Shown: piece after piece, positions 28,021-51,541 of the stretch
How the letters are laid out: the number at the start of each line of letters is the position of its first letter
Numbering within the stretch: position 1 is the stretch's first letter
DNA from: Dehalococcoidia bacterium
GTDB lineage: Bacteria; Chloroflexota; Dehalococcoidia; Lucifugimonadales; Australimonadaceae
Direction: 5' to 3'
DNA: 64,000 nucleotides
Assembly (NCBI GenBank): GCA_965206315.1
Contig: OZ242210.1
Coordinates: 2,641,619 to 2,705,618, forward strand
Made by a program: the position numbers and the translations under genes
The notes under the pieces: generated by a model
The model's database searches: none
What the model was told of the DNA's origin: nothing
The model's input: the letters and a program-made list of their open reading frames with translations, nothing else

Positions 28021-28262
28021 ACCCTAGCCCTCTTCCCTCAAGGGAGAGGGAGCAGACACCCTCACCCATCTCACCCCACCCGCGTGCCTACGGGCACTCT
28101 GGATTCCCGCCTTCGCGGGAATGACGGTTGTGGGCGCCCACAAGGGACGCCCCTACACCAGGCCACCCTCACCTACCTCACCCCGCCGCGTGCCTGTGTG
28201 CGCTACGCGCACTTCTGGATTCCCACCTTCGCGGGAATGACGAAGAGGCGCAGGAACGACGG
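28021..28262. repeat. intergenic repeat cluster (B, A, C, A, A')
   Basis: The cluster contains ccctcttccctcaagggagaggg, ctctggattcccgccttcgcgggaatgacgg, gggcgcccacaagggacgcccctaca, cttctggattcccaccttcgcgggaatgacg and ggcgcaggaacgacgg. Confidence 0.9.
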
Positions 28263-34186: not shown

Positions 34187-34216
34187 GATGCGTGCTCCTT
34201 GTTCGTTGTCGGGGGT

Positions 34217-34386
34217 AACCCTCACCCCCAGCCCCTCTCCCAGTGGGAGAGGGGAGTAAAGGCACCCTTCATGGGTGCCCGAGGCAAGGGCGCCCACAAG
34301 GGACGCCCCTACACCTGACCCCATTCCCCACACCACCGCGTGACCTGCCCGGTCACCCTGGATTCCCGCCGGTGCGGGAATGACGA
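34217..34386. repeat. intergenic repeat cluster (B, C, C, A-long inverted)
   Basis: The cluster contains accctcacccccagcccctctcccagtgggagaggggag, ggcacccttcatgggtgccc, gggcgcccacaagggacgcccctaca and gcgtgacctgcccggtcaccctggattcccgccggtgcgggaatgacg. Confidence 0.9.
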
Positions 34387-34395
34387 GGTTTGCTC

Positions 34396-35556
34396 CTACG
34401 TGTCGCGGGCGGAGGTGGGGCCGACCTCGCCCTTGCAGTAGGAGATGAACGCCTTCATGCGGCAGGTCACCTCGTTCCGGTCCAGCTCCGCCTCGTAGAT
34501 ATCGTGGATCTTCGGGTCCTCGTCCTCGTATTCGATCTGGTAGCCGCCTTCCTTGAAGCTCTGGTCGGCGCCCTGCCCGCGCGGGATGGCGGCGCGGAGG
34601 CCGTGCGTGCCCGGCGTCAGTGCCATGTAGCGCGCCCGCCGCGTGCCGGAGTTGAAGTGCTGGTGGTACGTCCCGTCGCTCGGCACGATGACGAGCGAGC
34701 CGACCTTCCAGTCGGCCTTGCGGATGTCGGACATGTCGTCCTTCGTCCACAGGAGGGAGAAGCCGGCGTCGCCGCTGAGGAGGACGAGGTTCGCGCCCGG
34801 TCCGTGCCGGTGCGCCTTCTTGTAGGTGCCGACGGGGAACTCGGAGATGTGGGCCTTGGAGAGGTTGCCGGCCATCTCGAACATGGAGTTGATGCCGCCG
34901 GCGCCGCGCTCGTTCCATGCGTAGAGGGCCATGTCCGGGGCGTTCGGCATGAAATTGGACGCCCAGACGCGCCGGTTATAGAGCTTGCCGTTGCCGCTGA
35001 AGAAGTCGTCTTCGCCGCTGTACCGGCTGCTGAACGGGTAGTCGCACTGGAAGATGAAGTCGTTGTCGCTGAAGAGCCGCATGTTCGCCGGGGCGGTCGT
35101 CACCGCGAGGTATCGCGCGGGCTCGGTGCCGCTGCCGTTGAAGTGCTGGTACCAGCAGTTCAGTGGGATGGAGAAGAGGCTGCCCTTCTTCCACTCGAAC
35201 GTCTTCTTCTCCTCGCTGCCCTGCGGCCAGATGCTGGTCGCGCCGCGCCCGGAGACGATGTAGACGTACTCCTCGTAGACGTGGTGCTCGGGCTCCGAAC
35301 TGCCGCCGGGGTCGATCTCGACGATATGGGTGTCGTTGGTGAGGACATGGTAGGGGATGTTGATGACGGCGCCCTTCCCTCCCTTGCGCTCCCACGGGCC
35401 GAGCTCGACGTTCGCGATGTCGTCGAAGGCGTAGTCGACGATGACCTTCACGCCCTCGGCCTTCAGCCAGTCGGCGTAGGGGTCGGGTATCGCGAAGTCC
35501 TCCAGCCCTTCGGGTGTCGGCGCGTACTTGATGGCCGCATCGGCGTCGGTGGTCAT
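34396..35556 (-). CDS. bicupin protein, paralogue of 3551-4705
   Basis: 386-aa ORF collinear with 3551-4705 (HHVYEEYVYIVSGRG, AHRHGPGANLVLLSG, YHQHFNSG). Confidence 0.8.
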   Translation of the reverse strand: MTTDADAAIKYAPTPEGLEDFAIPDPYADWLKAEGVKVIVDYAFDDIANVELGPWERKGGKGAVINIPYHVLTNDTHIVEIDPGGSSEPEHHVYEEYVYIVSGRGATSIWPQGSEEKKTFEWKKGSLFSIPLNCWYQHFNGSGTEPARYLAVTTAPANMRLFSDNDFIFQCDYPFSSRYSGEDDFFSGNGKLYNRRVWASNFMPNAPDMALYAWNERGAGGINSMFEMAGNLSKAHISEFPVGTYKKAHRHGPGANLVLLSGDAGFSLLWTKDDMSDIRKADWKVGSLVIVPSDGTYHQHFNSGTRRARYMALTPGTHGLRAAIPRGQGADQSFKEGGYQIEYEDEDPKIHDIYEAELDRNEVTCRMKAFISYCKGEVGPTSARDT

Positions 35557-35565: not shown

Positions 35566-35811
35566 CTATGGTTTCCTTGTCGAACGGGACTTGGCAGCGA
35601 GGTCGGCGATAATCTCACGCGCGCCGCCCAGTATCTCTATGCCTATGGCCTTGCCGTCCGCATAGTCGACGACCACGCCGGGCCGGACTTCATCCCCGTA
35701 GTCGGCGGGGCCATCCTTCCAGAAGAGAACGAGGCTATTCGTCTCAGCGACGAACTCGATCTCCAAGCCTGTTATTCCGGTTTTCGTTGCCATGGCCACC
35801 TTACCTTTCAC
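35566..35811 (-). CDS. DUF2283-like small protein (putative antitoxin partner)
   Basis: The pattern GLEIEF...VVDYADGKAIGIEILG is typical of DUF2283. The GTG start overlaps the upstream stop (GTGA); an alternative ATG lies at 35793. Confidence 0.65.
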   Translation of the reverse strand: MKGKVAMATKTGITGLEIEFVAETNSLVLFWKDGPADYGDEVRPGVVVDYADGKAIGIEILGGAREIIADLAAKSRSTRKP

Positions 35812-36056
35812 TCACGCTGAGAGTCATAGTTTGGGACAAAGAACGCAGTGTGTACAGTTTCTCCATCCTCTTCGACGATCACTCTCATCCATTCACCCGC
35901 TTCCACAATAAAGCCGGTCAGCGCAATCCGCCCTTCTGGTTGGTCTCTATCCTCCTGGCTAACGGGAGCGGCGAGAACACTCTCCACCCAGTCCTCCCTG
36001 TTCGCTTCAGGATGCTTACTCCTGGCCCAACGTTCAAAGTAGGGGGTTGTCTTCAT
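35808..36056 (-). CDS. DUF4258-like small protein (putative toxin partner)
   Basis: 82-aa ORF in a lower-GC stretch, directly upstream of and overlapping the DUF2283-like gene. The family call is by overall resemblance only. Confidence 0.55.
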   Translation of the reverse strand: MKTTPYFERWARSKHPEANREDWVESVLAAPVSQEDRDQPEGRIALTGFIVEAGEWMRVIVEEDGETVHTAFFVPNYDSQRE

Positions 36057-36139
36057 CCAAGGTCACTTTCGTCAGCAAACCATACGCCTGTCCTTCGGTG
36101 TGTGCACGCAGCGGGGGAGCAGGCACGGGCGCTCCACCA

Positions 36140-36298
36140 ACCCTCACCCACGCGCTAAAGCGCGTTGCCCTCTCCCAGAGGGAGAGGGGGAAGGCCCTTG
36201 GGCACCCACAAGGGATGCCCCTACACCGGGCACCGAACACCACCCCCACGCAAGGGCCCTGGCAGGCACCCTGGATTCCCGCCTTCGCGGGAATGACG
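36140..36298. repeat. intergenic repeat cluster (B inverted, C, A inverted)
   Basis: The cluster contains accctcacccacgcgctaaagcgcgttgccctctcccagagggagagggg, gggcacccacaagggatgcccctaca and ccctggattcccgccttcgcgggaatgacg. Confidence 0.9.
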
Positions 36299-36377
36299 AG
36301 GTTTGGGTGCGCTTGACTACGCCTTGCGGCGGGCGCACACTGCCAGCAGCAGCCGATCGCATAAAGGAGGCGTGGCC

Positions 36378-36998
36378 ATGGTCGTTGAGACGAGGACCCA
36401 GAACGCGCTGGACCGGTTCATCAGCAAGGCCCGTGAGCTGTTCGCAAGCGAGCCCGACCTGCCGAAGCGCTGGGAGGCGCTCACCCCCATCCTGGCCGAG
36501 TTGCTCGCCGACCCGACGGTGCTCGAGGCGTCGAAGAGTTGGCCGGACTGCGAGGCAAGGGAAGGCCGCGGCGAGAACCTCATCTTCTACGAGGACCCGG
36601 ACTTCGGCTTCGCTATCAACGGCCTCACGAAGGGCCAGTCGCGGCAGGGCCGCCTCTCGCGCGTCCACGATCACGGGTACATCTACACGCTGTACGGCGT
36701 GCTCGACGGCCACGAGAATATCGAGCGGTACGACCGGCTCGACGACGGCTCACGCCCGGACTACGCCGAGATCACGCTGGCGTCGAACAAGTATTGCGGT
36801 CCCGGTGAGATCGACCTCGTGGGGCCGTACGAGATACACCGGGAGAACACGGTGGGCGAGCGAACGGTCGCGGTGATCATCCGCAGCAACAAGGCGGGGA
36901 ACCACCTGCAGGGTCGCTACGACGCCGAGACAGGGGTGTACTTCCAGGGCTACGGTCCGCGCCAGACGCCCATCGAGATGTTCGGCAGCGCGGGGTAG
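36378..36998 (+). CDS. cysteine-dioxygenase-like cupin (double-stranded beta-helix metalloprotein)
   Basis: ATG 36378 is 7 nt after AAGGAGG. It has the LSRVHDHGYIYTLYGVLDG...GPYEIHRE metal-ligand pattern. The track ORF start (36303) lies in a repeat. Confidence 0.65.
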   Translation: MVVETRTQNALDRFISKARELFASEPDLPKRWEALTPILAELLADPTVLEASKSWPDCEAREGRGENLIFYEDPDFGFAINGLTKGQSRQGRLSRVHDHGYIYTLYGVLDGHENIERYDRLDDGSRPDYAEITLASNKYCGPGEIDLVGPYEIHRENTVGERTVAVIIRSNKAGNHLQGRYDAETGVYFQGYGPRQTPIEMFGSAG

Positions 36999-37007: not shown

Positions 37008-37199
37008 ATGGCGAACACGCGCAAGAAGGTCAAGCTGACGCCGGAAGGCGAGGCGTTGCGCCGCGAGGCGTTGAGCAGGGCTGACGACATCCGAGCGCAG
37101 TACGAAGAGTCCCAGCGGCGAAAGGCAGCCGGGGAGAAGGGGCTCTACATCCGCCACGGAAGTTCTGAGGAGATTCGACGGCAACTCCGTGGAGGCTGA
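37008..37199 (+). CDS. small antitoxin-like protein, paralogue A1
   Basis: 63 aa. It shares the motif P(E/L)GEAL(R/V)R...AQ..E.QRR.AAGE with 37202-37405 and 41568-41744. Confidence 0.5.
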   Translation: MANTRKKVKLTPEGEALRREALSRADDIRAQYEESQRRKAAGEKGLYIRHGSSEEIRRQLRGG

Positions 37200-37201
37200 T
37201 C

Positions 37202-37405
37202 ATGGCAACGCAACCCGAACAGAGCGAACCGGAACCCCTTGAGGGCGAGGCGCTCGTGCGCGCCATCATGGCCGACAAGAAGCTCGTCGCCGAGGCGCTG
37301 GAAGCACAGCGGCGGGCAGATGCCGGTGAATCTTCCGGCGTTCTCGTTCGGGCCAGCGACATCAGAGACTGGGTGAATGGCAAACGGCGAAAGCGTCCCG
37401 TTTGA
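37202..37405 (+). CDS. small antitoxin-like protein, paralogue A2, upstream of a ParE/RelE-like pseudogene
   Basis: 67 aa (PLEGEALVRAIMADKKLVAEALEAQRRADAGESSG). It overlaps the start of the toxin remnant. Confidence 0.55.
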   Translation: MATQPEQSEPEPLEGEALVRAIMADKKLVAEALEAQRRADAGESSGVLVRASDIRDWVNGKRRKRPV

Positions 37406-37663
37406 CGTATTCTTCGAAGACCGGGCCCAGGAATTCATAGGTGGACTATCTGCCTCCGGCTTGACCGGCTGATGGTCGCGATAGGCCTACTGGTCATTGA
37501 CCCGTACCCCGATGAGCGTACCAAGGTACGTCTACCCTTCCCTTTCCGTTACGGCACGATCGGCTATACAGCGAGCAACTTCTTCATCGTTTACGAGTTC
37601 GAAAACGCCACCACGCTGCGCGTTTCTACAATCTCGTGGGCAGGCACTCCGTACTGGGGCTAA
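37377..37663 (+). pseudogene. ParE/RelE-like toxin gene with a frameshift
   Basis: The N-terminal part MANGESVPFDVFFEDRAQEFIGGLSASGLTG* (37377-37472) and the C-terminal part ...AIGLLVIDPYPDERTKVRLPFPFRYGTIGYTASNFFIVYEFENATTLRVSTISWAGTPYWG* (to 37663) are in different frames. Together they are collinear with the gene at 41308-41578. Confidence 0.55.
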
Positions 37664-39905
37664 CCAGTCGCCTGCCCGGCCTCGTGGAGGGCACGCCAGA
37701 CGCGCTCGGGGGTGAGGGGGAGCGTGGAGATGCGGACGCCGGTGGCGTTGAAGACGGCGTTCGCCACGGCGGGGGCCACGCAGACGATGCCGCCCTCGCC
37801 GACGCCCTTCGCACCGTAGGGGCCGGGACCGTTGCCGCTCTCGATCAGCACGGTCTCGAACTCGTGCGGGAGGTCGGTGAAGACGGGCACGCGGTAGTCG
37901 ACGAGGTTCGGGTTCAGGAGCTGGCCGTCCTCGTAGAGCATCTCCTCGAAGAGCGTGTGGCCGATGGCCTGCATCGCGGCGCCCTCGTCCTGGCCCTCGA
38001 CCTGCTTCGGATTGATCGCCTTGCCGGGGTCGGAGATGGAGTAGTAGCGGAGCAGGCGCACCTCGCCGGTGGCCGTGTCGACCTCGACCTCCGCCGCGCC
38101 GATGCTCACCTCCCAGAAGACGGGGTCCTGGCGGAGTTTGCCGCTGGCGTGCTTCGGGGTGACGTAACCCCGGCCCATGAGCTCGCCGCCGGAGCCGCCG
38201 AACATGTTGCGCACGAGCGCGGCGAACGCGACGGACTCGCCCTTGAACGACGCCCGTCCGTCCTCGGCTTCAATCTCCTCCGGGAACGCCTCGAAGTGCT
38301 CCGCGGCGAGGTCGAGCACCTGCTGGCGGACGTCGATGGCGGCGTCGTGCACGGCGAGGCCCATGAGCGTCGTCGAGCGGCTGGAGCCGGTCGAGCGGTC
38401 CCACGGCACCGCGGAGGTATCCGACGCGACGACGCGCACCTTCTCGTAGGGTATGCGCAACTCCTCCGCTGCGATCTGCGCCATCACCGAGCGGGAGCCC
38501 TGCCCCATCTCCGCGCTGCCGATGTAGACGGTGGCGCTGCCGTCGGAGTGGAAGCGCACGAGCGACGTCGACGTGGGGCTCGCGCCGGAGTTCGTGACGC
38601 CGCAGGCGAAGCCGATGCCACGTTTCACGCCGGGCGGCGTCGGCCCCGGAGTCCACGAGTCCCAGCCGAAGTCGTCTGCGACCCTGCGCAGCGCGTACTC
38701 GAGGTCGCCCTCGATGGGACGCCTGCCGCGCCGCACCTCCTCGCCTTCCTTGACGAGGTTCTTCACGCGGAACTCGAACGGGTCCATGCCCAGCGCGTGG
38801 GCGATCACGTCTATCTGGGACTCGCACACCCAGATGGCCTGCGGCCCGCCGATGGAGCGGTAGGAGCCCGCGGGGGTCGAGTTCGTGAAGAGGCCGTAGG
38901 TCTTCACCCGGACGTTCGCCAGCGCGTACGGCCCCGGCATGCGGTCGCCGAAGCGCTCGGTCACCCGAACGCCGTTGTCAGTGTAGCCGCCGGTGTCGAC
39001 GTAGCCGGTGCACTCGCGGGCGACGATGGTGCCGTCGTTCATCACGCCGGTGCGGATCGTCCCGCGGGCGGCGTGGCGGCGGACCGTCCGCATGGCCTCG
39101 TCGACGCTCAGCGCAAGCCCGACCGGCCTGCCCGCCTCGCGGCTGAGCGCGGTCACGAGCGGCTCTATCTTTGTGTACGATTTGCTCCCGTAGCCCCCGC
39201 CAACGAAGGGGACGACGACCTGCACCTGGTCCAGTTGCCGCCCGAAGAGGCGCGCTATCTCCGCCTGTACGAGGAACGGGTGCTGCGCCGACGTCCAGAG
39301 GCGGATGCGGTCCGGTTCGTAGCTGGCGATGCAGGTGTGCGGTTCCATTGCGTAGTGGTAGACCATCGGGAACTCGAACGTATCCTCGAAGACGCGGTCG
39401 CACTCGCGGAATGCCGCATCCACGTCGCCCCATTCGTAGCCGTACTCGTGGCAGAAGTTGGACTCGTGGACGGGCTCACTGGACGGGTCGAGCGCTTCGT
39501 CGATGCCGGTGACCGTCGGCAACTCTTCGTACTCGACGTCAACCAGTTCGACGGCTGCCTCGGCAGTCGCGAGGTCGACAGCGGCGACAGCGGCAACGGG
39601 CTCGCCCTGGAAGCGCACCTTGTCGATGGCGATGACGGGGCGGTCCTTCTTGTCGGAGCCGTAGTGCGTCTCCATGTTGACGAGCTCAGCCGAGGTGAGC
39701 ACGGCGTAGACGCCGGGGAAAGCGCGCGCCCTGCTCGCGTCGATGCTGATGATGCGCGCGTGCGGCAAGGGGCTCGTCACGAGTCTGCAGAACGCCATGC
39801 CGGAGACTTCGAGGTCGCCGGTGAACTGCGCGCGGCCCGACAGCTTGTCATCCGCGTCGACCCGTCGCACCGCCGTACCGACCGTTTTGAACTCGCGCGT
39901 CGTCA
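37660..39905 (-). CDS. xanthine dehydrogenase family molybdopterin-binding large subunit
   Basis: The start is placed at ATG 39905 (MTTREFKTVGTAVRRVDADDKLSGRAQFTGD), overlapping the small-subunit stop. It has the GSYRSIGGPQ motif and the C-terminal GAKGVGEGG. The track ORF is over-extended to 40251. Confidence 0.9.
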
Positions 39906-40388
39906 TCGGCCTGCCTCCGCCGCTTCGTGGACAGCTTCCACGATCTTCTTGTAGCCGGTGCAGCGACAGACGTTGCCGCGCATGTAGTCCTTGATCACCT
40001 CCTCGGAAGGAGCGGGGTCGGCATCGAGCAGCGACTTCGCGGCGAGCAGCATGCCCGGCGTGCAGAAGCCGCACTGGAACGCGGCGTTGTTGACGAACGC
40101 CTCGATGAGCGGGGACGCGCTCTCGTCCGCCGCGAAGCCTTCGACGGTGAGCACCACCCTGCCCCGCGCCTCGAACGCCGGAACGGTGCAGGAGCTGACG
40201 GGAGCGCCGTCCAGCAGCACGGTGCACGCGCCGCAGACCTGCACGTCGCACGAGCGTTTCGTGCCCGTGAGGCCGAACCGCTCGCGCAGCAGATCGATGA
40301 GCGGCGTCTGCGGCTCGACCGCGGCCTCGACCGGCGCACCGTTCAATTCGAATGCGACCGCCAGGGTGTCCTGCGGCTCAGGCATCAC
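39903..40388 (-). CDS. (2Fe-2S)-binding small subunit of the molybdenum hydroxylase
   Basis: CDVQVCGACTV and QCGFCTPGM...CRCTGY cysteine motifs. Confidence 0.9.
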   Translation of the reverse strand: MMPEPQDTLAVAFELNGAPVEAAVEPQTPLIDLLRERFGLTGTKRSCDVQVCGACTVLLDGAPVSSCTVPAFEARGRVVLTVEGFAADESASPLIEAFVNNAAFQCGFCTPGMLLAAKSLLDADPAPSEEVIKDYMRGNVCRCTGYKKIVEAVHEAAEAGR

Positions 40389-41256
40389 CGCCTCCGTTCC
40401 GCGCCAGCGCGCGCAGCACCGTCCGCTCCATGAAGACGCGCACGAGGTGCTCCTTGTAGTCGACGCCGCCGTGCATGTCCTCGACCGCGTCGGCGTCCTC
40501 CGCCGCCAGGCGGGACGATTCGCGGATAGCAGACGCGCCCTCGGTCAACGCATCGACGCGCTCTCCGCGCAGCACGTCCTCGGAGCGGGAGAGCCGCCGC
40601 GCGACGGGTGAGACGCAGCCGAGGGCGAGACGCGCATCCGCGACGACGCCGTCCTGCACCGCGAGCGCGGCGGCGATACCGAGCGTCGGGCGGTGGTGGT
40701 AGCCGAACTTCGAGTAGGCGGCGCGCATGCCTGCGGGGAACGCGGGGACGCGCACGGCGGTCAGGAGTTCGTCCGGCGCGAGCGAGGTCTCGTATGAGCC
40801 GGTCTGCAGGTCGCCGACGGCGATGCGCCGCGAGCCGGACGGCCCCGCTATGTCCAACTCGGCCTCGTAGACGAGGAGCAGCGTCGCGGGGTCTGAGTGG
40901 GGCTCGGCGAAGCAGAGGTTGCCCGCGAGCGTGCCGACGTTCCGCACGCGCAGGTTCGCCACGCTGTGCTCGACCTCCGACAACAGCGGCAGCCGGTCGC
41001 GCACGAGCGGGTCGTGCTCGACAGCGCTGTGTGTCGCGCTCGCGCCGATGACGATGCTGTTACCGTCGGCGGCGATGGCGTCGAGGCCGGGGATGCTCTT
41101 CACGTTGACGAGGGTGTCGTAGGCGAGCAGGCCGGACTTCATGGCGAGCAGCAGTTCGGTGCCGCCGGCGTAGAGCGCGGCGCCGCCGTCCGCGTCGGCG
41201 AGGGCAGACGCGGCCTCCCGGACGGTCGTGGGTTCATGCAAGCGGAACGGCTTCAC
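40378..41256 (-). CDS. FAD-binding (CoxM-like) medium subunit of the molybdenum hydroxylase
   Basis: GTG start. ALYAGGTELLLAMK and NVGTLAGNL motifs of the FAD-binding PCMH-type domain. Confidence 0.9.
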   Translation of the reverse strand: MKPFRLHEPTTVREAASALADADGGAALYAGGTELLLAMKSGLLAYDTLVNVKSIPGLDAIAADGNSIVIGASATHSAVEHDPLVRDRLPLLSEVEHSVANLRVRNVGTLAGNLCFAEPHSDPATLLLVYEAELDIAGPSGSRRIAVGDLQTGSYETSLAPDELLTAVRVPAFPAGMRAAYSKFGYHHRPTLGIAAALAVQDGVVADARLALGCVSPVARRLSRSEDVLRGERVDALTEGASAIRESSRLAAEDADAVEDMHGGVDYKEHLVRVFMERTVLRALARNGGGDA

Positions 41257-41307
41257 AACGCGGGGATGCTATCCGCACGAGCGTCGCGGCGGCAAGCATG
41301 GGGGACG

Positions 41308-41578
41308 TCAGCCCCAGTAGTCGGGACTCACGCGGGAGATTGAGAGAACACGTACCGTTGCCGGATTCTCGAACTCGTAGGTGAAGAAGAACCTTCCGGC
41401 GGTGTAGCCGATAGCGCCGAATCGATACGGCAGTGGTAATCGGACCCTGGGAGGTGCCATCCGGTTCAGGGTCACTCATCAGATGGTCAATTGCCGCCTG
41501 TACTTCCAAGCGCTCTGCCTCGGAGAGCGCCTCGACGAATCTACGGGCGGCAGTGTCCAGGAGTAGGTCAACGGGCAT
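41308..41578 (-). pseudogene. ParE/RelE-like toxin gene with a frameshift (paralogue of 37377-37663)
   Basis: Frame 0 gives MPVDLLLDTAARRFVEALSEAERLEVQAAIDHLMSDPEPDG. After a 1-nt shift near 41455-41465 the frame gives ...RVRLPLPYRFGAIGYTAGRFFFTYEFENPATVRVLSISRVSPDYWG*, ending at 41308. The track ORF (to 41234) follows the wrong frame. Confidence 0.55.
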
Positions 41579-41744
41579 CGAGTTCCCGTTTTACCTCTTC
41601 CCATGGTATTCCCGGTTCCCCTGCCCTGGCGCGATCGTAGGCCTCGTTCGTCTCTTTGACGAGCTTCTCGTCTGCCACCATTGCGCGCACGAGGGCCTCG
41701 CCGGTGAGGGGCTTCGGTGCGTTCTTCCTGCGCCTGGATGCCAT
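41568..41744 (-). CDS. small antitoxin-like protein, paralogue A3 (58 codons, absent from the ORF track)
   Basis: MASRRRKNAPKPLTGEALVRAMVADEKLVKETNEAYDRARAGEPGIPWEEVKRELDAR. It overlaps the toxin ATG by 11 nt and is collinear with 37202-37405. Confidence 0.5.
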   Translation of the reverse strand: MASRRRKNAPKPLTGEALVRAMVADEKLVKETNEAYDRARAGEPGIPWEEVKRELDAR

Positions 41745-41795
41745 GATATTCGCTTCGTGCGGCTCCTGCTGCTCAGTATAACAAGCGTGCGTCGC

Positions 41796-42857
41796 CTAGT
41801 TCTCGCCGATGAGCAGCTCGGCGGTCTCCCTGCTCATGCCGTTCTCGAGGAGCGGGTTGCCGTAGAGCGTGTAGACCTGCACGTCCCTCGGGTACAGGCG
41901 GAGCGGCCAGAACCAGGGCTGGGAAGTGTGCGATCCCACAGCGCCGCAGGTGCGGGTCGCCCGCCTCGTTGGCCCGTCGTTGGCGCACATGAGGCCGCTG
42001 TGCGTGTGCTCGGCGGCATAGAGCGCGTGCATCGCCTCGTGCAACCCTATCTCGTACATCACCGGCCCGGGGATGCTCACCTGCTCGCCTCCGGGTCCGG
42101 AGGCGTACCGCCGCAGACCGATGATGTCTTCTCCCAGCACCGCGCATCCGGCCCAGTCGTCCGTGTCGCCACACCACCGACCGAAATACTCATTCCCTTC
42201 GTACCACTGCAACGCCCCTGCCTGCTCATCGGACTCCGTCCATTCACGGTGCGTCCAGGTTTCGAGCTCGGGCATGACCTGCGTGCGTATCACCTCCTGC
42301 GTCCGCGCGGGAAGCCTCGCGTCCACCCAGTACCTGCCGGTGCTCATCGCCTCGGACTTCACGACGGCTCCCGAGACGAACAGCCCGCTGCACGCGGGGT
42401 CGAAGAGGCAGTCCCTTACGCGAGCATCGGCGAACAGCACCGGCTCCGGGACGGGCGTCGGGGTCGGCACCGGCGTCGGAGTCGCGGTCGGAGCAGGCGT
42501 GGGGGTGGCGGTCGGCGTGGCAGTGGGCCGGGGTGTGGGGGTCGCGGTTGCCATCGGTGTCGGGGTGGGCGTAGCGGTCGGCGCCGGGGTAGGCGTCGCG
42601 ATGGGGGTTGCAGTCGCAGTAGCCGTGGGGGTTGCAGTCGCAGTAGCCGTAGGCGTGGGCGTTGGCGTTGGTGTATGCGTGGGAGTGGGTGTGAGCGTGG
42701 GCGTCGGAGTGGCGGTCGGCGCCGGGGTCGGAGTGGGCGCAGCACAGCCCGCGATGACGGTTACGAGCAGTAAGGTCAAGGCAAACGCCAAGGAGCAATG
42801 TTTCGAGAACACCAGCGTCTCCTGGAGGTGAGCCTTTGCGTAGTCCATCCACTCCAC
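41796..42857 (-). CDS. lipoprotein with a long Thr/Pro/Ala linker and an HExxH metallopeptidase-like motif
   Basis: Lipobox [10 protein letters not shown]. The linker of about 100 aa is [12 protein letters not shown].... The globular domain has [14 protein letters not shown]. Confidence 0.7.
42444..42743. repeat. low-complexity coding repeat (Thr/Pro/Ala linker)
   Basis: Degenerate short-period ggcgtcgg/ggtgtggg-type repeats on the plus strand encode the TP linker of 41796-42857. Confidence 0.85.
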
Positions 42858-42870: not shown

Positions 42871-42984
42871 CCCCATCCCAGCTTCCCCCGTCGAGGGGGA
42901 AGGGGCCAGGCAGGGCGCTCGCACCACGCCCTGCCGCGTGACCTGCCCGGTCACTCTGGATTCCCGCCGGTGCGGGAATGACGG
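42871..42984. repeat. intergenic repeat cluster (E, A-long inverted)
   Basis: The cluster contains cccagcttcccccgtcgagggggaaggggcc and cgcgtgacctgcccggtcactctggattcccgccggtgcgggaatgacgg. Confidence 0.9.
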
Positions 42985-43092
42985 ATGCGGTCGGGCCCAC
43001 GCTCCCGCAAGTCAGGCAAAGGTCTCGAGAGTGCGGAGCCAAGCGCCTATCAGCTACAAGATGCTAACAGACGAGAAACCGGCCGCAGGGCA

Positions 43093-43317: not shown

Positions 43318-44400
43318 ATGACATCCAAGCCCACCCCCGAAGGCACGCACGTCAAGCCGACGCCGGACGACCTGTTCTTCCACCACGACGTGTGCGTGGA
43401 GACACGCTGGGAGAACCTGTACGGACGCGGGTACCTGACGCCCGCATCGCTGTTCTACATCCGGAACCACGGGCCGACACCCATCATCGACCAAAAGACG
43501 TGGCGGCTGAGCGTGGAAGGGCCGGGCGTGGAGAACCCGCTGAGCATCAGCTACGACGAGCTGCTGCGGATGCCGTCGGTGACGGTGACGCGCTTCATCG
43601 AGTGCGCGGGCAACGGGCGCATCTTCTTCAAGGAGTACCAGGGAGAGATGCCGAAGGGACGCCCGTGGCGCTACGGCTCCTACGCTGTCGCCGAGTGGAC
43701 CGGCGTGCCGCTGCGCGAGATCCTGGAGCGCGCGCGCATCAAGCCGACAGCCGTCGACGTGATGCCGACGGGACTGGACGAGGCCGCCGTGGAACGCCCC
43801 ATGCCGGTGTCCAAGGCTATGGAGCCGGACACCATCGTCGCGTACGCGATGAACGGCGACCTCATACCGCCCGACCACGGCTTCCCTGCACGGGTTGTCG
43901 TTCCCGGATGGGTCGGCGTCAACAGCATCAAATGGGTGGGGAAGATCGTCGTATGCGAAGAGCCCATCTACGTCATGCGGAACACGGAAGAGTACGTGCT
44001 GGAAGGGCCGGACTTTCCGCCCGAACCCCCGGCGTGGGGGCCCATCCTCACCACGACGCCGGTCCGCTCCGGGATCGCCATGGCGTGGCCGGGGACGCTG
44101 CAGGCCGGCACGCAGGCGATCCGGGGCTTCGCGTGGTCCGGCCACGGTAGCATCAGCCGGGTCGAGTACAGCCTTGACGACGGGAAGACGTGGGCCGACG
44201 CCTGCATCCAGGAGCCGAACATCCCGAAGGGCGGCTGCCGCTGGGAGTTCATCTGGGACGCGACGCCGGGCGAGCACACTATCACGATGCGGGCGACCGA
44301 CAGCGCCGGGAACACGCAGCCGGAGCCCGACGCGATGAAATGGAACGAGCGAGGCTACGACTTCTGGGCGGCGGTGCCGCATCCGGTGACGGTGGTGTGA
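43318..44400 (+). CDS. sulfite-oxidase-family molybdopterin oxidoreductase (no signal peptide)
   Basis: AGGAGG RBS. The Moco-binding Cys context is TRFIECAGNGR. It also has GFPARVVVPGWVGVNSIKWV and a C-terminal Ig-like dimerisation domain pattern. Confidence 0.85.
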   Translation: MTSKPTPEGTHVKPTPDDLFFHHDVCVETRWENLYGRGYLTPASLFYIRNHGPTPIIDQKTWRLSVEGPGVENPLSISYDELLRMPSVTVTRFIECAGNGRIFFKEYQGEMPKGRPWRYGSYAVAEWTGVPLREILERARIKPTAVDVMPTGLDEAAVERPMPVSKAMEPDTIVAYAMNGDLIPPDHGFPARVVVPGWVGVNSIKWVGKIVVCEEPIYVMRNTEEYVLEGPDFPPEPPAWGPILTTTPVRSGIAMAWPGTLQAGTQAIRGFAWSGHGSISRVEYSLDDGKTWADACIQEPNIPKGGCRWEFIWDATPGEHTITMRATDSAGNTQPEPDAMKWNERGYDFWAAVPHPVTVV

Positions 44401-44419
44401 GGGGCTCTGCGCCCCTACG

Positions 44420-44786
44420 CCGGACGCCCTCACCCGCCCAAGCGCGTCGATCTCTCCCCGAGGGCGAGATGGGGAGCATACAGGGCACCCACGAGCGACG
44501 CCCCTACACCAGACGGGGTTCCTGCCTTCGCAGGAACGACGGAGTTGTGCTCCGTCCGGAATGACACGCCGCGCCGCCGCCCTGCCGCAGGGCCCTCACC
44601 CGCCGCGCAAGCGCGTCGACCTCTCCCCGAGGGAGAGGTGAGGAGACACGGCCCCGAGAGATTCCTCGACTGCACCACCGGCTAGGTCGACGGCTCCGCC
44701 CGGAATGACAATCCGCCCCACCTCTCACTGACCCCGCCGCGTGACCTGCCCGGTCACTCTGGATTCCCGCCAGTGCGGGAATGACG
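44420..44786. repeat. large intergenic repeat cluster (B, C, A', B, D-like, A-long inverted)
   Basis: The cluster contains ccctcacccgcccaagcgcgtcgatctctccccgagggcgagatgggg, gggcacccacgagcgacgcccctaca, ggttcctgccttcgcaggaacgacgg, ccctcacccgccgcgcaagcgcgtcgacctctccccgagggagaggtgagg and gcgtgacctgcccggtcactctggattcccgccagtgcgggaatgacgg. Confidence 0.9.
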
Positions 44787-44805
44787 GAGCTGCGCTCCGC
44801 TCGGT

Positions 44806-46185
44806 TCAGGAGCGATCGCGGAGCTCCTGCAGGCCGACAGCGGCCTCGCGGCGCAGCCTGTCGGCGGTCACGCGCTCCTGGTCCACGGTCTTGAAGGCGT
44901 CGACGGTGAAGGGACGCCATGAGTTGCGCAGGGCGCGTACGGCCCCCTCTTCCCTCTCGACCGCCTCGACCAGCAGGTTGTACATGGGCAGCAGGTAGCC
45001 GGACCGGGGGAGACTCCGCACCTCGCGACCGAGGTCGCCCATGCGCAGGTTGAAGCCGTCCAGGGACCGGAGCACCCCGGCGCGGTCGCACCCGCCGTCG
45101 GTCCTGCGCCAGTCGCCGTAGCGCTCGTGGAAGGCGTCCCACTTCACGATGAGGGCCGCGTAGTGGGCCTCGAAGTTCTCGACCTCCGCGAGCTTCTCCT
45201 CCGGGTCGTCGTCGACCAGCAGCCTGACCGTCCGTCCGGCCCGCTCGAGGGTTGCTTCGCTCTCTTCGAAGACGGCGTCCATCTCATCCAGGGGAGAGCG
45301 CGGTGGCGGGGCCTGGCCCTCGAGGAGAGCGGCAAGGTTCTCCTGCATCTTCGCATGCACCGCGAGCAGGGCCTCGCGCTCGGCCTCCGCCGTCGCCCGA
45401 AGCGTCGCGGCGACGCCTTCGGTGGCGCCCTCCGCGGAGAGTCCGGACACCGCCTCGACTATCGCGTCGAACCGGGCGACAAGCAGTTCGAGTTCAGCGA
45501 CGACCGCGAAGGGGTCCATCTGGGCCGCCGCCTCCTGTAGTCCGGCGTAGTCGTCGTGGAACTCGTTCCAGTCGTCGCCGACGGCATCGAGGGCGCCGGA
45601 GAACCTCATTAACGCCGCCCGCTCTCCGGGCCCGGCGGCTGCCTCCAACTGCTCGCGCAGCTCCAAGGCCATGTCTTCGACGCGCCTCTGGGCCCGAGCG
45701 GAACCGTCGCGGCGCTGTTCAACCTGCTCGAACAGGGAGACGTCGTCAGGCTGCCAGCGGTCACGCAGGTGACGGAACGCCGCCTCTTCATCCTCGGCGG
45801 CCGCGATCACTATGTCGGCGATCTCCCTGGTGGCAGCGGCCCGGGGAAGGTCTCCGGCCTGCGCCGTCACCTCCGCGAAGCCGGCGGCAAAGCCCTGCAG
45901 GGCCTCGTGGACCGAGCTCCTGTGGCAGGAGGTCAGGCCCGCGCGCCAGCGGTCGAAGTCCACGTGGAGCTGGTCCCACTCCTCATCGATGGCCTGCCGT
46001 TGCTCCGCGAACGCATCCATGGCCATGCGGTCGGCGGCCGACAGCGGTCCGACAGTCGAGGCGGGCGGCGCCTCCGGGGGCGCCGTCGGCGGTTGCGTAT
46101 CGGCGGTCTCGCTGCAAGCGACCACCATGGCCAGCAAGAGCGATACCAGGAGCAGCGGAACAAGGGAGCCGAGTCTTACTTTCAT
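44806..46185 (-). CDS. helical lipoprotein with three internal repeats
   Basis: Lipobox LLLAMVVACS. Three modules of about 130 aa share F...(E/K)W(D/N).(L/F)H..(F/Y)..W... C ... LP ... LR..W.P. The second module is degenerate. Confidence 0.7.
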   Translation of the reverse strand: MKVRLGSLVPLLLVSLLLAMVVACSETADTQPPTAPPEAPPASTVGPLSAADRMAMDAFAEQRQAIDEEWDQLHVDFDRWRAGLTSCHRSSVHEALQGFAAGFAEVTAQAGDLPRAAATREIADIVIAAAEDEEAAFRHLRDRWQPDDVSLFEQVEQRRDGSARAQRRVEDMALELREQLEAAAGPGERAALMRFSGALDAVGDDWNEFHDDYAGLQEAAAQMDPFAVVAELELLVARFDAIVEAVSGLSAEGATEGVAATLRATAEAEREALLAVHAKMQENLAALLEGQAPPPRSPLDEMDAVFEESEATLERAGRTVRLLVDDDPEEKLAEVENFEAHYAALIVKWDAFHERYGDWRRTDGGCDRAGVLRSLDGFNLRMGDLGREVRSLPRSGYLLPMYNLLVEAVEREEGAVRALRNSWRPFTVDAFKTVDQERVTADRLRREAAVGLQELRDRS

Positions 46186-46188
46186 GAA

Positions 46189-47496
46189 CTACCTGCCTAC
46201 CCCCACGTAATCAGTCACCAGGTCACCTCTGAACTCGCCGTCCAACAAGCGGTAGACCGCACCAGCCAACGTTGCCGGGCTGTCCGCGAGCACCACCAGG
46301 ACGTGCCGGTCCTGGTTCCGGTCGAGCACGGTAACGAACGTCCCCTCCGGGTCCAGGTCCGGCGTGAAGGGAGTGCCCAGGGTACCGCCGATACGCACCC
46401 CGGCGGCCTGGAGGTACCGGCTCATCGGGAGAGCGTCCTCGTAGAGCCCGAGGAACACGGTGTCCCGGCTCAGGTCCTCGACCCCGCGGACCTCGGACGA
46501 GATGCCGAACTCGGAGAGGCCGTTCTTCATGTCGATGCCTACGTCCCAGAGGGACGGCTGCCCCAGCAGGATGTCCGCGCCCGCTTCCGGGCCGGTCTCG
46601 TAGAAGTGCGGGAAGTCCGCCAGTTCGTACGTGCGTTCGGTCGAGGTGAGGTAGTCGGCGATGTTGGATATGAGCCTGCCGTTGTCCAGCAGTGAGTCCT
46701 GCGGAGGGACCATGAAGGTCAGGTCGGCTATCGCCAGCACGTTGCGGGCGCCGCCCCCTGCGATGGGGTAGAGCCGCTCCAGGTCTTCCACCAGCGACGA
46801 CCTCGTACCGTCGCCGGCGAACGCCAGCCCGGGGCCGGAGGAGCGGATCGAACCGGCGGTGTAGAGGGTTATCGAATCCAGGCCTGCGGTGAGCTCGCCG
46901 GGCTGGAACTCGCTCACGATGATGTTCTGGAAGATCAGGTCGTACTCCGTCATGTCGTAGAGGTAGTCCGGCCGGAACTCCAGTCCGAACCTTCCTGCCA
47001 GCGTGTTGATCCGCTGGGGGCGGGTCGGGTCGGACACCAGCAGGAGTTTGCCGCCCTTGCTCACGAACCGTTCCACGAGGGCGGCCTCGGCTTCGGAGTA
47101 CTCCAATTGCGGAAGGGCGACGACGAGGCTGTCCGCGCGCCGCAGGTCCTCCTCCAGGAGCCGGAGGCGGACACTCTCGTCGTAGGGAGTGAACCCGCCG
47201 AGGAACTCCACGTCATACCCCCGGTTGGCAACCCGTGAAGTGAGGGTGAAGAGCTCGCTCTCCGTGAACGCGTTGCCATGCATGGCGTCCACCACCATGA
47301 GGCCCCGCTTCACCCGGGTCACGGGCGAGTCCACGGATGCATCCGCCGGGAGACGGGGCGCGGCTATCTGTTCATAGGGGATCTCCACCTGGGGCGGCGG
47401 GTCGTACCCCCCTCGGTAGAAGAGGAGGAAGGCCACCCCGAAAGCGACGACGGCGAACGCGGGCAAGAGGGCGAGGAGTGCGAGTTTACGAGCCAT
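46189..47496 (-). CDS. membrane-anchored hypothetical protein (possibly DUF4350/GldG-like)
   Basis: 435-aa ORF with an N-terminal TM anchor. It overlaps the SppA stop by 11 nt. The family suggestion is tentative. Confidence 0.65.
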   Translation of the reverse strand: MARKLALLALLPAFAVVAFGVAFLLFYRGGYDPPPQVEIPYEQIAAPRLPADASVDSPVTRVKRGLMVVDAMHGNAFTESELFTLTSRVANRGYDVEFLGGFTPYDESVRLRLLEEDLRRADSLVVALPQLEYSEAEAALVERFVSKGGKLLLVSDPTRPQRINTLAGRFGLEFRPDYLYDMTEYDLIFQNIIVSEFQPGELTAGLDSITLYTAGSIRSSGPGLAFAGDGTRSSLVEDLERLYPIAGGGARNVLAIADLTFMVPPQDSLLDNGRLISNIADYLTSTERTYELADFPHFYETGPEAGADILLGQPSLWDVGIDMKNGLSEFGISSEVRGVEDLSRDTVFLGLYEDALPMSRYLQAAGVRIGGTLGTPFTPDLDPEGTFVTVLDRNQDRHVLVVLADSPATLAGAVYRLLDGEFRGDLVTDYVGVGR

Positions 47497-48533
47497 TTCC
47501 CACGTACAGGTAGTAGAAGTTCGGTTGGCCTATGCCGAGCGGGAAGTCCGGCAGAGGGTCTGCCTGGTCCGTGCTCAGCTGGCGCTCGAGCATGAGTCCC
47601 CGCAGGGCTTGCAGTCCCGAGACGCCGTTGCCGTTCTCTTCCAGGAAGGCTTCCAGGACAGGGTCGCCCTCATCGAGGTCCGGCAGGAGGAGGTCGAGGG
47701 CGTCGACCAGGTTGGCCCCATCCCCGCTGTCCAGGGGTTCGAGGATCCGCTGCAACTCACGGATGATCTCTATCTGCACCTCGAGGTTGACGTCCACGAG
47801 CCCGTAGTTGGAGATGCCCGCCAGCTCCGCCGCCTTCTCGATAGCGTCGCTGTCGCTGCCGATCTCATCGGCAAGGCCCAGTTTCACGGCGTCCAGGCCG
47901 GAGTAGATCCGTGCCTCGATCAACTCGTCCCAGGAGATGCGCAGCCTGTCCCCCCGTTCGCTGACCACGGTCTGCGCGAAGGCTGACTTCAGCTCGTCCA
48001 CCATCCCGATCCAGTCCCTCCTCGAAGCGCCATCCAGCTTATGCCGACCGCTGAACACCACGTCCTCGCCGGGCACCGGAGGGACCAACGGGTCGGCTCC
48101 GGAGACCACGCCCACGTTCCCCACGAGGGAGGATGGCTTGGCGAAGAGATGGCTGGCGCCCATCGACATCATGTACCCGCCACTGGCAACCAGCCCGTTC
48201 ATGACCACGACGACAGGTTTCTCCGCGCGAAGCGTGCGGGTCTCGAGGTAGAGGTGTTCGCTGGCCGCGGCGCCTCCTCCGGGGGAGGTCAGCTTGATGA
48301 CCACGGCCTGGATGGAGTCGTCCTCACGGGCGTAATCGAGGAGCCTGTCCACCACATAGGCCGAGTCCTCGGTGATCACCGTGAAGGGTATGTCGATGAC
48401 GCCGATCTTCGGCTGTCCGGGAGTAGCATTGGCGAACGTCCACACGCCGATCGCGATGCCCAGAGCAGCCAGCAGCGGCGAGACGACGTACCAGCCGGTC
48501 AGTACTTTCCTCAAACGGGAGAAGAAGCCCACA
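47486..48533 (-). CDS. sppA: signal peptide peptidase SppA (S49, 36K type)
   Basis: GTG start at 48533 (VGFFSRLRKVLTGWYVV..., TM anchor). It has IKLTSPGGG and the catalytic Ser context LVASGGYMM. The upstream half of the 699-aa track ORF is antisense to the hydrolase gene. Confidence 0.85.
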
Positions 48534-48733
48534 CCGCTATTCTCGCCTCTGGACGCCGCCGGTAGCAAGATGGGGGGAGGCCGCCGCGCGACCGTGTACG
48601 CTTGTGCGCACATGCGCGTCTGCGACGCGTTTCTGGATTCCCGCCTTCGCGAGAATGACGGGGGATGCGGTTGACGGGGCGCCCCACGCCTCCCTACCCT
48701 CACGCCCGCCAACCCATGCAACGGAGCGCGACC

Positions 48734-49583: not shown

Positions 49584-49973
49584 ATGGAAATGCAGCCGGA
49601 CTATCTCGACATACTGACGCTCGAATCGGGCAAGGAGTGGGAAGACATCCACATCCGCGGGCTTGACGTGTCCGTGCGCGACATCCTCACCTTCATGGCC
49701 TCCGGCATGTCCGAGGACCAGATTCTTGCCAAAGTCCCCGAGTTGAAGCGTGAGGACATTCGCGCCTGCCTCGCGTTTGCCGCCGACCGTGAGCGCCGCG
49801 CCACGTCGCTGCCGTCGCACCTGTACTACGACAAGAAGACGAAGCGCATCAAGGCGAAGCCACCCCAGGAGGAGCTGCTCGACCGCATCCGCCAGCGCGT
49901 GAACGCGTCAGGCAGAGGCGTCTCCACAGAGACCATCCTGGCAGCGCTCGACAAGGAATATGATCGTCGTTGA
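49584..49973 (+). CDS. DUF433-containing antitoxin candidate with a C-terminal extension
   Basis: IHIRGLDVSVRDILTFMASGMSEDQILAKVPELKREDIRACLAFAA is a DUF433 core. The tail overlaps the PIN start by 14 nt. Confidence 0.7.
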   Translation: MEMQPDYLDILTLESGKEWEDIHIRGLDVSVRDILTFMASGMSEDQILAKVPELKREDIRACLAFAADRERRATSLPSHLYYDKKTKRIKAKPPQEELLDRIRQRVNASGRGVSTETILAALDKEYDRR

Positions 49974-50358
49974 CGCCTCGGCACTGATCTCGGTTGTAAC
50001 GGGCCAACAACCCGGTGGTGATTGGGTACGCGAGCAACTTCGAGAGCAGCGGCTGTTCAGCCCCCACGTGATGCCCGCTGAAGTCCATAGCGCTCTCAGA
50101 AGCATGGAACTCAGGGGGGAACTCTCGCCAGAAGACGCCACCAGAGCAAGGGATGAGTTCTTCGGGTTCGACTTTGAACTCTATCCTTTCCGCCCATACG
50201 CAGACCGGGTCTGGGCGCTGCGATGGAACCTGAGTTGCTACGACGCGTGGTACGTGGCACTGGCGGAGACGCTCGACTGTCCGCTCGTGACGATCGACCA
50301 CCGACTCAGCCGAGCGGTCGGGCCGGAGTGCGCGTTCGTGACGCCGCCGGACGCGTGA
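49960..50358 (+). CDS. vapC: PIN-domain toxin (VapC-like)
   Basis: MIVVDASALISV..., CYDAWYVALAETLDCPLVTIDHRL. Confidence 0.85.
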   Translation: MIVVDASALISVVTGQQPGGDWVREQLREQRLFSPHVMPAEVHSALRSMELRGELSPEDATRARDEFFGFDFELYPFRPYADRVWALRWNLSCYDAWYVALAETLDCPLVTIDHRLSRAVGPECAFVTPPDA

Positions 50359-50545: not shown

Positions 50546-51541
50546 ATGGAATTCGGCCTGTACCTGCGCTCCTTCCTCACCGATCGCACGCGCCCGCTCT
50601 ACGAGCAGATAGACGAGCTCGTCGAGATCTGCCACGTGGCTCGCGACAGCGGCTTCTCAGCCGTCACGATGCCGCAGCACTGGGTGTCGCACCCCACGAT
50701 CTGGCCGCAGCCGTTCCAGGTGCTGGCGCGCCTCGCGCCGGAGACCGGCGACATGCGGCTGCTCACCGGCATCGTGCTGCTACCGCTGCACAACCCCGTG
50801 CAGGTGGCGGAGGACGTGGCGACGCTCGACCACATCTGCCGGGGACGGCTCACGTTCGGGGTCGGCATCGGCTACCGCGAGACGGAGCTGGGCGCCGTGG
50901 GCGCCACGCGGCGGGACCGCGTGCCGCGCCTCACCGAGTCGATCGAGATCATGAAGCTGCTGTGGAGCGGGGACGAGGTGAACTACGAGGGACGCTACTG
51001 GACGGTGAGCGAGGCGAAGATGGGCTTCGTGCCCGTGCAGCAGCCGCACCCGCCGATATGGATAGCGTGCCAGAGCGACGGCGCGGTACGGCGCTCTGCC
51101 CGCATCGCGGACGCATGCTACATCGCGCCGCAGGTCGGGCTCTCGGACCTGGGGTCCGTCACGGCTGCCTATCGCGAGGAGCGTGCCGCATCCGGCAACG
51201 GGCCGGGACGGCTCACGCTGACGCGCGGCGTCGCATACGGGAAGGACAAGGCGACCGCGGCAGCCGAGGCGCAGGAGGCCGCAGCGTCGTCGTACAGGAT
51301 GTACAGCACGTGGAACATGCAGGAAGACACGATGCTGAAGATCAACATCGACTCCGACTCGAAGGTCGAGGACTGGGCGATCACCGGCAACGGCGACGAC
51401 TGCCTGGAGCAGTTCGCGGCCATCGCGGAGCACGGCATCGACTACGTGGGCATGACGTTCTACAACCTGCCGAAGACGCTGGAAGCGCGCAAGGAGTACC
51501 TGCAGAGCTTCGCGGAGAACGTGATCCGGCGCTCGCCGTAG
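50546..51541 (+). CDS. LLM-class flavin/F420-dependent oxidoreductase
   Basis: MEFGLYLRSF...FSAVTMPQHW...LTFGVGIGYRETE. The start is placed at ATG 50546; the track ORF starts inside a repeat. Confidence 0.85.
   Translation: MEFGLYLRSFLTDRTRPLYEQIDELVEICHVARDSGFSAVTMPQHWVSHPTIWPQPFQVLARLAPETGDMRLLTGIVLLPLHNPVQVAEDVATLDHICRGRLTFGVGIGYRETELGAVGATRRDRVPRLTESIEIMKLLWSGDEVNYEGRYWTVSEAKMGFVPVQQPHPPIWIACQSDGAVRRSARIADACYIAPQVGLSDLGSVTAAYREERAASGNGPGRLTLTRGVAYGKDKATAAAEAQEAAASSYRMYSTWNMQEDTMLKINIDSDSKVEDWAITGNGDDCLEQFAAIAEHGIDYVGMTFYNLPKTLEARKEYLQSFAENVIRRSP

Follow-up and report, generated by a model that had tools for sequence, protein, structure and literature searches.

Paralogous RelE/ParE-fold toxin–antitoxin modules on both sides of a molybdenum-hydroxylase operon in a Dehalococcoidia bacterium, probably in toxin-first decay

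Toxins of the RelE/ParE superfamily are proteins of about 90 residues whose gene directly follows, and overlaps, that of a small partner protein. Classical ParE carries a C-terminal helix, and the catalytic residues of Escherichia coli RelE are K52, K54, R61, R81 and Y87. For the partners, PaaA2 of the paaR2-paaA2-parE2 system offers a lead for comparison. A survey of Photorhabdus has described how chromosomal toxin–antitoxin (TA) systems erode: toxin genes become pseudogenes while antitoxin genes remain, and the modules, clustered in small spots between conserved core genes, are lost while their neighbourhood stays (PMC13617665). Here we analyse a stretch of 64,000 nucleotides from a Dehalococcoidia bacterium (contig OZ242210.1, positions 2,641,619 to 2,705,618; hereafter the window, in whose numbering positions are given), in which a molybdenum (Mo)-hydroxylase operon with the genes M, S and L is bracketed by two small modules. 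Our reading, to which we give a probability of roughly two in three, is that these are paralogous TA modules with toxins of the RelE/ParE fold, sitting at long-standing hotspots on the two flanks of the operon and undergoing decay in which the toxin goes first. As in the Photorhabdus case (PMC13617665), the toxins of the window are broken, the antitoxins are kept and the spots that hold the modules lie among conserved genes; unlike there, the modules on the two flanks of one operon belong to the same family, neither of their toxins is intact and the evidence is purely computational.

To the left of the operon two antitoxin-like genes in tandem, A1 and A2, precede a toxin gene, and to its right, on the opposite strand, a third antitoxin-like gene, A3, precedes another (Table 1). 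The two toxins are 53% identical over 64 residues (tblastn, E = 1e-19), which is far beyond chance, and the three small proteins are likewise homologous to one another (A2 and A3 are 43% identical, A1 and A3 37%). The left toxin starts at an ATG (37377) that overlaps the end of A2 by 29 nt and the right toxin at an ATG (41578) that overlaps A3 by 11 nt; this pairing, in the manner of a two-gene operon, recurs in all relatives, by which we mean loci from metagenome-assembled Chloroflexota/Dehalococcoidia genomes, 11 of them compared here. The stop codon of the left toxin (TAA, 37661-37663) shares 2 nt with the convergent stop of L (TAG, 37662-37660). Within the bracket, L carries the domains Ald_Xan_dh_C, MoCoBD_1 and MoCoBD_2 (E = 1e-28 to 1e-74) and is 92-97% identical to its counterparts in relatives, and the domains of M, S and L all score above the Pfam cut-offs, which identifies a three-subunit Mo-hydroxylase of the xanthine dehydrogenase/carbon monoxide (CO) dehydrogenase type. 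The active-site motif of form I CO dehydrogenase was not noticed in the sequence of L, for which no formal search was made. The window as a whole has a G+C content of 66.6%.

Much of this layout had been proposed by the initial annotation, which was made from the sequence alone. Its three intact antitoxin paralogues, A1 and A2 in tandem and A3 outside its gene track, are indeed open reading frames (ORFs); the homology of the toxins that it saw is borne out by the tblastn match, the overlap of the left toxin stop with that of the large subunit by the two shared nucleotides, and the presence of large, small and medium Mo-hydroxylase subunits between the modules by their Pfam domains. Its further claim, that each toxin requires a frameshift and that the two lie at different places, was upheld by DNA alignments with relatives.

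Table 1. Coordinates of the bracketed operon, its flanking modules and other features of the window
Feature	Position	Strand	State or basis
Conserved 206-aa gene, directly before left module	36378-36998		neighbour
A1, 63-aa antitoxin-like gene, orphan here	37008-37199	+	intact ORF
A2, 67-aa antitoxin-like gene, cognate partner of T95 toxin type	37202-37405	+	intact ORF
Left toxin pseudogene, T95 type, RelE/ParE fold	37377-37663	+	two frames; 1-nt deletion, ~codon 29
L, Mo-hydroxylase large (molybdopterin) subunit, 748 aa	37660-39906	-	Pfam
S, Mo-hydroxylase small [2Fe-2S] subunit, ~160 aa	39903-40388	-	Pfam Fer2 + Fer2_2
M, Mo-hydroxylase medium FAD-binding subunit, 292 aa	40378-41256	-	Pfam FAD_binding_5 + CO_deh_flav_C
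Promoter-like TTGCCG-N18-TAGCAT, ending 9 nt upstream of M GTG start	41266-41295	-	conservation
Right toxin pseudogene, T89 type, RelE/ParE fold	41308-41578	-	two frames; extra C, codon 44
A3, 58-aa antitoxin-like gene, cognate partner of T89 toxin type	41568-41744	-	intact ORF
Extended -10-like TGnTATACT, ~30 nt upstream of A3 start	41775-41783	-	conservation
Pro/Thr-rich repeat protein, adjoining A3	41796-42857	-	signal-like N-terminus
Pro/Thr-rich repeat protein	57245-58927	+	signal-like N-terminus
Pro/Thr-rich repeat protein	~58900-61365	+	signal-like N-terminus
Additional TA-like pair	13420-14123	-	intact
Additional TA-like pair	23939-24809	-	intact
Additional TA-like pair	~49650-50358	+	intact
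Additional TA-like pair	35566-36056	-	intact
IS30-like transposase gene	4792-5811	-	HTH_38 + rve
IS30-like transposase gene	8626-9594	-	HTH_38 + rve
GIY-YIG-like ORF	~9700-9974		by eye
Cupin gene	3551-4726	-
Cupin gene, paralogue	34396-35556	-
Segment of three genes	44400-48700	-	~4.3 kb
Second Mo-hydroxylase cluster, whole	50546-55590	+
Second cluster, M	51544-52404	+
Second cluster, L	52380-54686	+
Second cluster, S	54686-55153	+
Second cluster, CoxG	55147-55590	+
REP-like hairpin repeats	992-1203, 1596-1645, 3249-3427, 15944-16100, 18725-18818, 22548-22726, 24852-25028, 28072-28258, 34213-34387, 36133-36308, 42929-42985, 44427-44788, 48606-48670, 62198-62260, 63496-63573	both	intergenic

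The lesion in the left toxin, defined by alignment with four relatives, is the loss of one base between 37461/37462 (relatives GGTTATGAT, window GGCT-TGAC); the first frame then runs into a TGA at 37470-37472 and the other continues to the TAA at 37661-37663. In the right toxin, aligned with six relatives, there is one extra C at 41451-41453 (ACCTCC[C]AGG in the window and ACCT-CCAGG in the relatives; in the wider site, ACCTCCCAGG and ACCTCCAGG, respectively), so that the protein leaves its frame after ...SDPEPDGTS and the other frame ends at a TGA (41310-41308). Used as a query, the repaired right toxin returned a small set of 89-residue read-through proteins, and it is 93-96% identical to the single-frame proteins of loci L019 and L001; the L019 copy, which reads through, comes from a contig of 2.8 Mb with a coverage of 57x stated in its name. 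The repaired left toxin is 81% identical to the single-frame 95-residue genes of L006-L008, with protein P0010 (95 residues) as its closest intact homologue. In the related loci the right toxin is in a single frame in all 11 and free of stops in 10.

Such damage is not general in the window. All 19 other genes of the L004 locus with a counterpart in the window gave single, essentially full-length, in-frame matches; together they cover about 18 kb of coding DNA, and the toxin alone is split. The three PIN toxins of the window are intact. (A split-gene test on stop-to-stop ORFs was discarded because of antisense-ORF artefacts in DNA of 67% G+C, and called genes, with a gene list based on third-position G+C, were used instead.) With 19 neighbouring genes unbroken, it is very unlikely that two random indels would be confined to 0.56 kb of toxin sequence, and on balance we think it rather probable that the frameshifts are biological and not errors of assembly. 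Exact-protein look-ups with A3 and A2 returned no record, and scans of a metagenome collection for exact patterns spanning both frameshift sites, with either allele, returned 0 matches.

Comparison with the relatives suggests that the two flanks have been sites of continual turnover. We name antitoxin and toxin types by A or T and their length in residues. At the left locus L005-L008 and L020 carry A67-T95, the toxin being intact in L006-L008 and L020; L004 and L013 carry A63 (the A1 type) with T86; L019 carries A59-T89'; the window carries A1-A2-T95, frameshifted; L014 has A1-A59 and a toxin deleted to a stub of nine codons; L012 has only a remnant and L011 nothing. The right locus holds either A108-T95' or A58-T89, the latter alone or preceded by an orphan A108. 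In blastn alignments of the window with L004, homology has precise break points, one where A1 ends and one at the stop codon of L, the T86 gene (272 bp; L004 13909-14180) being swapped for A2-T95 (476 bp; window 37193-37668). Set against the left locus of L019, the window aligns at 91% in the antitoxin's 5' part and the toxin's 3' half, and the antitoxin C-terminus and the toxin N-terminus have been replaced together. Among the toxins, the nearest relatives of the N-terminal half are not those of the C-terminal half. Turnover within the clade would thus proceed both by cassette replacement and by intragenic recombination.

Lesions of other kinds occur in the same family. The right toxin of L013 (OY764542.1, a 3.2-Mb chromosome-level metagenome-assembled genome (MAG); locus 10001-10270) has an independent substitution, CGA to TGA, at codon 52, and the left toxin of L014 is the deletion stub already mentioned. 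The 108-residue antitoxin is an orphan in L005-L009 and L014 and paired with a toxin in L011 and L020, and A1 lacks a toxin partner in the window and in L014. In all these cases of toxin damage or loss in relatives, the antitoxin gene is intact. The phrase decaying addiction modules, used by the initial annotation, fits these clade-wide toxin lesions alongside retained antitoxins. Decay would then take two steps, the toxin being inactivated first and the antitoxin kept for a while, possibly because it neutralises paralogous toxins, and the hotspots at which it takes place would lie one directly upstream and one directly downstream of the M-S-L operon. In L005 (13898-14206) the 95-residue toxin has an extra A, on a contig whose name gives 10x coverage, which may be real or an error.

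The antitoxin-like genes are tied to the toxins by inheritance, always as matched pairs, namely A58-T89, A59-T89', A67-T95, A108-T95' and A63-T86. Thus A3 is 74-91% identical to the 58-residue genes that precede 89-residue toxin genes in all relatives, and A2 is 82-87% identical to the 67-residue genes that precede the intact 95-residue toxin genes of L006-L008 and L020. A1 of the window is 97% identical to A1 of L004, which overlaps an intact gene for an 86-residue toxin; this partner, T86, is present in L004 and L013 and absent from the window. Moreover, distant relatives of the toxin in unrelated contexts (L016-L018) also have a small gene directly upstream, abutting their own, with a C-terminal region similar to that of A1-A3; this supports a two-component module. 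We infer that the pairs are type II TA modules, with toxicity of one partner and its neutralisation by the other as the presumed activities. Two proteins, P0009 (125 residues, breaking off after toxin residue 68) and P0059 (172 residues), appear to be fusions of antitoxin and toxin and may be real or errors.

As a group the antitoxins are unannotated. None of 99 homologous antitoxin clusters has a Pfam domain, and the few that bear a name are hypothetical proteins of Chloroflexota MAGs; the only hint for the small partners is a match of the C-terminal 28 residues to NCBIfam RelB_like (E = 0.025, 14.8 bits against a cut-off of 50), and a profile search of the PDB with the antitoxin alignment gave nothing relevant, only matches at chance level. 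Like PaaA2, they are small (58-67 residues in the window), partner a toxin of RelE/ParE fold and have no recognisable DNA-binding domain. They differ from it in showing no detected sequence similarity, in the lack of an evident third regulator gene and in a basic N-terminus (KRKK).

For the toxins, the fold was modelled with AlphaFold (AF2) on P0002, an intact homologue with 83% identity to the repaired right toxin, using an alignment of 41 sequences. The model is confident (predicted local distance difference test score, pLDDT, 87.6) and has the beta-alpha-alpha-beta-beta-beta topology of the RelE/ParE fold (E4-7, H9-17, H20-35, E56-60, E63-71, E74-82). Its best matches in the PDB (Foldseek) were Thermus thermophilus RelE (template modelling (TM) score 0.77, E = 6e-5) and Mycobacterium tuberculosis RelE2 (TM 0.74-0.81), followed by M. 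tuberculosis RelE1, archaeal RelE, ParE, YafQ and YoeB, with TM scores among the top matches from 0.63; an earlier model from a shallower alignment gave an identical ranking. Because the model is confident and its best structural matches are RelE and ParE proteins, the assignment of the predicted fold is well supported. In length (about 90 residues), topology and TM score (0.67-0.77), as well as in gene order, the predicted structure resembles superfamily members such as 2KHE, 3G5O and the Mesorhizobium ParE of 5CEG/6X0A; it departs from them in a family-specific loop, DPxPDG..K..LPFPY, between helix 2 and strand 2, and from classical ParE in that a C-terminal helix is absent from the secondary structure of the P0002 model.

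By sequence, in contrast, the toxins form an uncurated family, and their membership of a curated ParE or RelE family is not supported. Weak matches to ParE_toxin were obtained for 7 of the 41 members of the wider family (best E = 0.0052) and to ParE-like_toxin for 4 (best E = 1.8e-4), profile searches of the PDB with the toxin alignments gave matches at chance level only, and among 1.84 billion representative proteins an exhaustive hidden Markov model search retrieved only 57 relatives at E <= 0.001, from which the 41 were drawn. Of the term ParE/RelE-like in the initial annotation, therefore, the fold stands, by the model and the weak profile matches, whereas no curated ParE or RelE model was matched. 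The target of the toxins may be gyrase, as for ParE, or mRNA, as for RelE.

Upstream of both the operon and the right module there are short conserved sequences that could serve as promoters. Between the right toxin and M a motif CTTGCC-N17/18-GGATAGCATC has both its elements, CTTGCC and GGATAGCATC, invariant in 8/8 relatives, beside a toxin gene that is itself only 60-96% identical across relatives. In the region upstream of A3, TA-ACTG is invariant in 9/9 aligned sequences that are otherwise poorly conserved. A strict consensus scan called no promoter, the motif upstream of M included; the one terminator-like site found lies inside the S gene, with 2.3 expected by chance, and Rfam and tRNA searches of the window returned nothing. 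The conserved motifs suggest that the operon has a promoter of its own, giving a near-leaderless transcript, and that the right module is transcribed from another, upstream of A3.

Several observations weigh against the reading of two TA modules in decay. As regards the identity of the genes, A1-A3 have no Pfam domain, ribbon-helix-helix, helix-turn-helix, Phd and AbrB domains were undetected in them and they matched no known antitoxin family; the repaired window toxins and P0002 had no Pfam or NCBIfam match at E <= 1, the models ParE_toxin (PF05016), ParE-like_toxin (PF15781) and RelE-ParE included, and their close homologues likewise matched no model of either collection; and hhalign against E. 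coli RelE, whose sequence was verified beforehand, placed family residues 16-75 on RelE residues 16-72 with a probability of only 6.8%, a weak alignment in which the non-basic residues A, G and F stand opposite K52, K54 and R61. As regards the lesions, assembly errors are most often single-base indels, and the extra base of the right toxin falls within a short run of C; CoxG is split in L007 and the large subunit in L012, on contigs whose names indicate low coverage; and both halves of the toxins are highly conserved and free of secondary lesions, so that the frameshifts, if real, would be very recent. A RelE-type RNase mechanism was considered and not adopted. Residues R82 and Y87, invariant in the 89-residue toxin subclade, coincide with R81 and Y87 of RelE, but the weak alignment provides no equivalents of K52, K54 and R61, and the two residues lie outside it and are not conserved in the wider family.

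If both frameshifts were errors of sequencing or assembly, the window would hold two intact, functional TA modules and an extra antitoxin, A1. Single-base indels, one of them within a CC/CCC run, in toxin halves that have accumulated no further damage are what such errors would look like, and related public assemblies with low coverage stated in their names do show indel errors in housekeeping genes; a CCTCC string stands just before both sites, although to call it a context for systematic error is speculation. Yet with 0 frame-breaking indels in the 19 neighbouring genes the error rate would be so low that two in the toxins are very unlikely unless errors depend on context, and the lesions of relatives, namely the substitution to a stop codon in L013 and the extensive deletion in L014, are not explicable as indel errors. 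We therefore regard this explanation as unlikely, though far from negligible. That both halves of each toxin gene are open and conserved would also suit programmed ribosomal frameshifting as a device to limit toxin synthesis. However, one gene would need a +1 shift and the other a -1 shift, at non-homologous positions; slippery heptamers and prfB-like motifs are absent from both sites as read from the sequence, and in all close relatives a single frame suffices to encode these proteins. We rejected this mechanism, which is scarcely credible. Decay of the toxins thus remains the reading we prefer for the lesions.

Two further explanations concern the bracket as a whole. The initial annotation had suggested that the A-A-T/L-S-M/T-A unit is a cassette delimited by the modules, or a substrate for inversion, and had raised synteny in relatives as a check. 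Mo-hydroxylase genes and TA modules do occur together in every close relative examined, homologous modules stand inverted on both sides of the operon in an arrangement that recurs in relatives, and in L011 the modules and a short-chain dehydrogenase/reductase (SDR) gene are arranged differently around it. However, synteny extends equally to the genes beyond the bracket: in nearly all relatives the order is sulfite-oxidase-like, ..., A58-T89, M, S, L, convergent toxin, antitoxin, 206-residue gene, ..., cupin, with neighbour proteins 86-97% identical to those of the window (right toxin 60-96%, A3 74-91%), and nothing marks the modules as the ends of an element. The orientation of the operon relative to its flanks is the same in 11/11 related loci. 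The best match between the modules in inverted orientation spans 77 nt at 77% identity and lacks any long identical run, the boundaries show no integrase, transposase or terminal repeat, and the REP-like (repetitive extragenic palindromic) repeats nearby occur throughout the window. Since outside genes are as syntenic as inside genes and orientation is constant, neither a mobile cassette nor an inversion device is supported, and we consider both highly improbable; the bracket looks instead like a vertically inherited arrangement within a shallow Chloroflexota/Dehalococcoidia clade. In the other explanation the modules are functionally tied to the operon, stabilising it against deletion or coupling its expression to theirs by read-through from the A3 promoter. 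Complete or near-complete relatives carry only two to three antitoxin clusters each, about the number at the locus, which suggests that the antitoxin family is locus-bound in the clade, and in most relatives the right module lies on the strand of M, 42-80 nt upstream of it. The family might then have been bound to both flanks throughout the history of the clade, diversifying in place while the bracket served the operon, and the antitoxin C-terminus and toxin N-terminus, presumably the interaction interface, would have been swapped as a unit. In a clade this shallow, however, synteny alone weighs little; the conserved promoter-like motif between toxin and M speaks for transcription of the operon on its own, distant members of the family have neighbours other than Mo-hydroxylase genes, and the loss of one or both toxins is tolerated in the window, L013, L014 and L012. 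TA systems are moreover reported not to conserve neighbourhoods (PMC13617665). A functional tie, including its form as a locus-bound family that serves the operon, thus seems improbable to us, and we keep to hotspots occupied by modules in toxin-first decay.

The window contains several other features that touch on mobility and TA systems. The REP-like hairpin repeats form modular arrays in both orientations at many intergenic sites, with units CTGGATTCCCGCCTTCGCGGGAATGACG; CCCTCTCCC..GGGAGAGGG..GTGAGGG; and GGGCACCCACAAGGGGTGCCCCTACA, units that are also found in L004. The two IS30-like transposase genes are diverged (about 75% DNA identity). Of the four additional TA-like pairs, three consist of a PIN-domain toxin with an upstream partner (one unassigned, one DUF7662 and one DUF433) and the fourth of a DUF2283 gene and an 82-residue gene; the DUF433-PIN pair is absent at the matching position of L004 and present in L005 and L007, and a FitA-like-PIN pair is found there in L001, L006 and L008. 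One relative is labelled APA_bin_2, a name that, like its locus-tag style, resembles those of sponge-metagenome bins, from which we presume a link to that habitat; TA systems are reportedly enriched in sponge symbionts, according to one study.

Among the remaining genes, the second Mo-hydroxylase cluster follows a gene for a luciferase-like monooxygenase and shares about 70% DNA identity with parts of the bracketed one. The Pro/Thr-rich proteins contain long repeat regions of the kind PTPTATPTP...; L001, L004 and L013 have the gene that adjoins A3, which was not detected in L005-L008 or L014. The segment at 44400-48700 is present in L019, where the counterparts are a peptidase S49, an ABC_transp_aux and a 459-residue gene, partly present in L013 and absent from L004. 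The two cupin genes encode paralogues with 58% protein identity.

In annotating this genome, the two toxins are best marked as pseudogenes or potential assembly errors, and A3, which according to the initial annotation was missing from the ORF track, should be added as a gene. The finding reveals neither a new kind of mobile element nor a new regulatory device. What the locus and its relatives provide, all at one fixed place, is a clean natural series of eroding TA modules and swapped cassettes, with frameshift, nonsense and deletion lesions, orphan antitoxins and mosaic toxins, and, by the predicted fold, an uncurated branch added to the RelE/ParE toxin superfamily together with an unannotated family of partner antitoxins, so far mainly from uncultured Chloroflexota.

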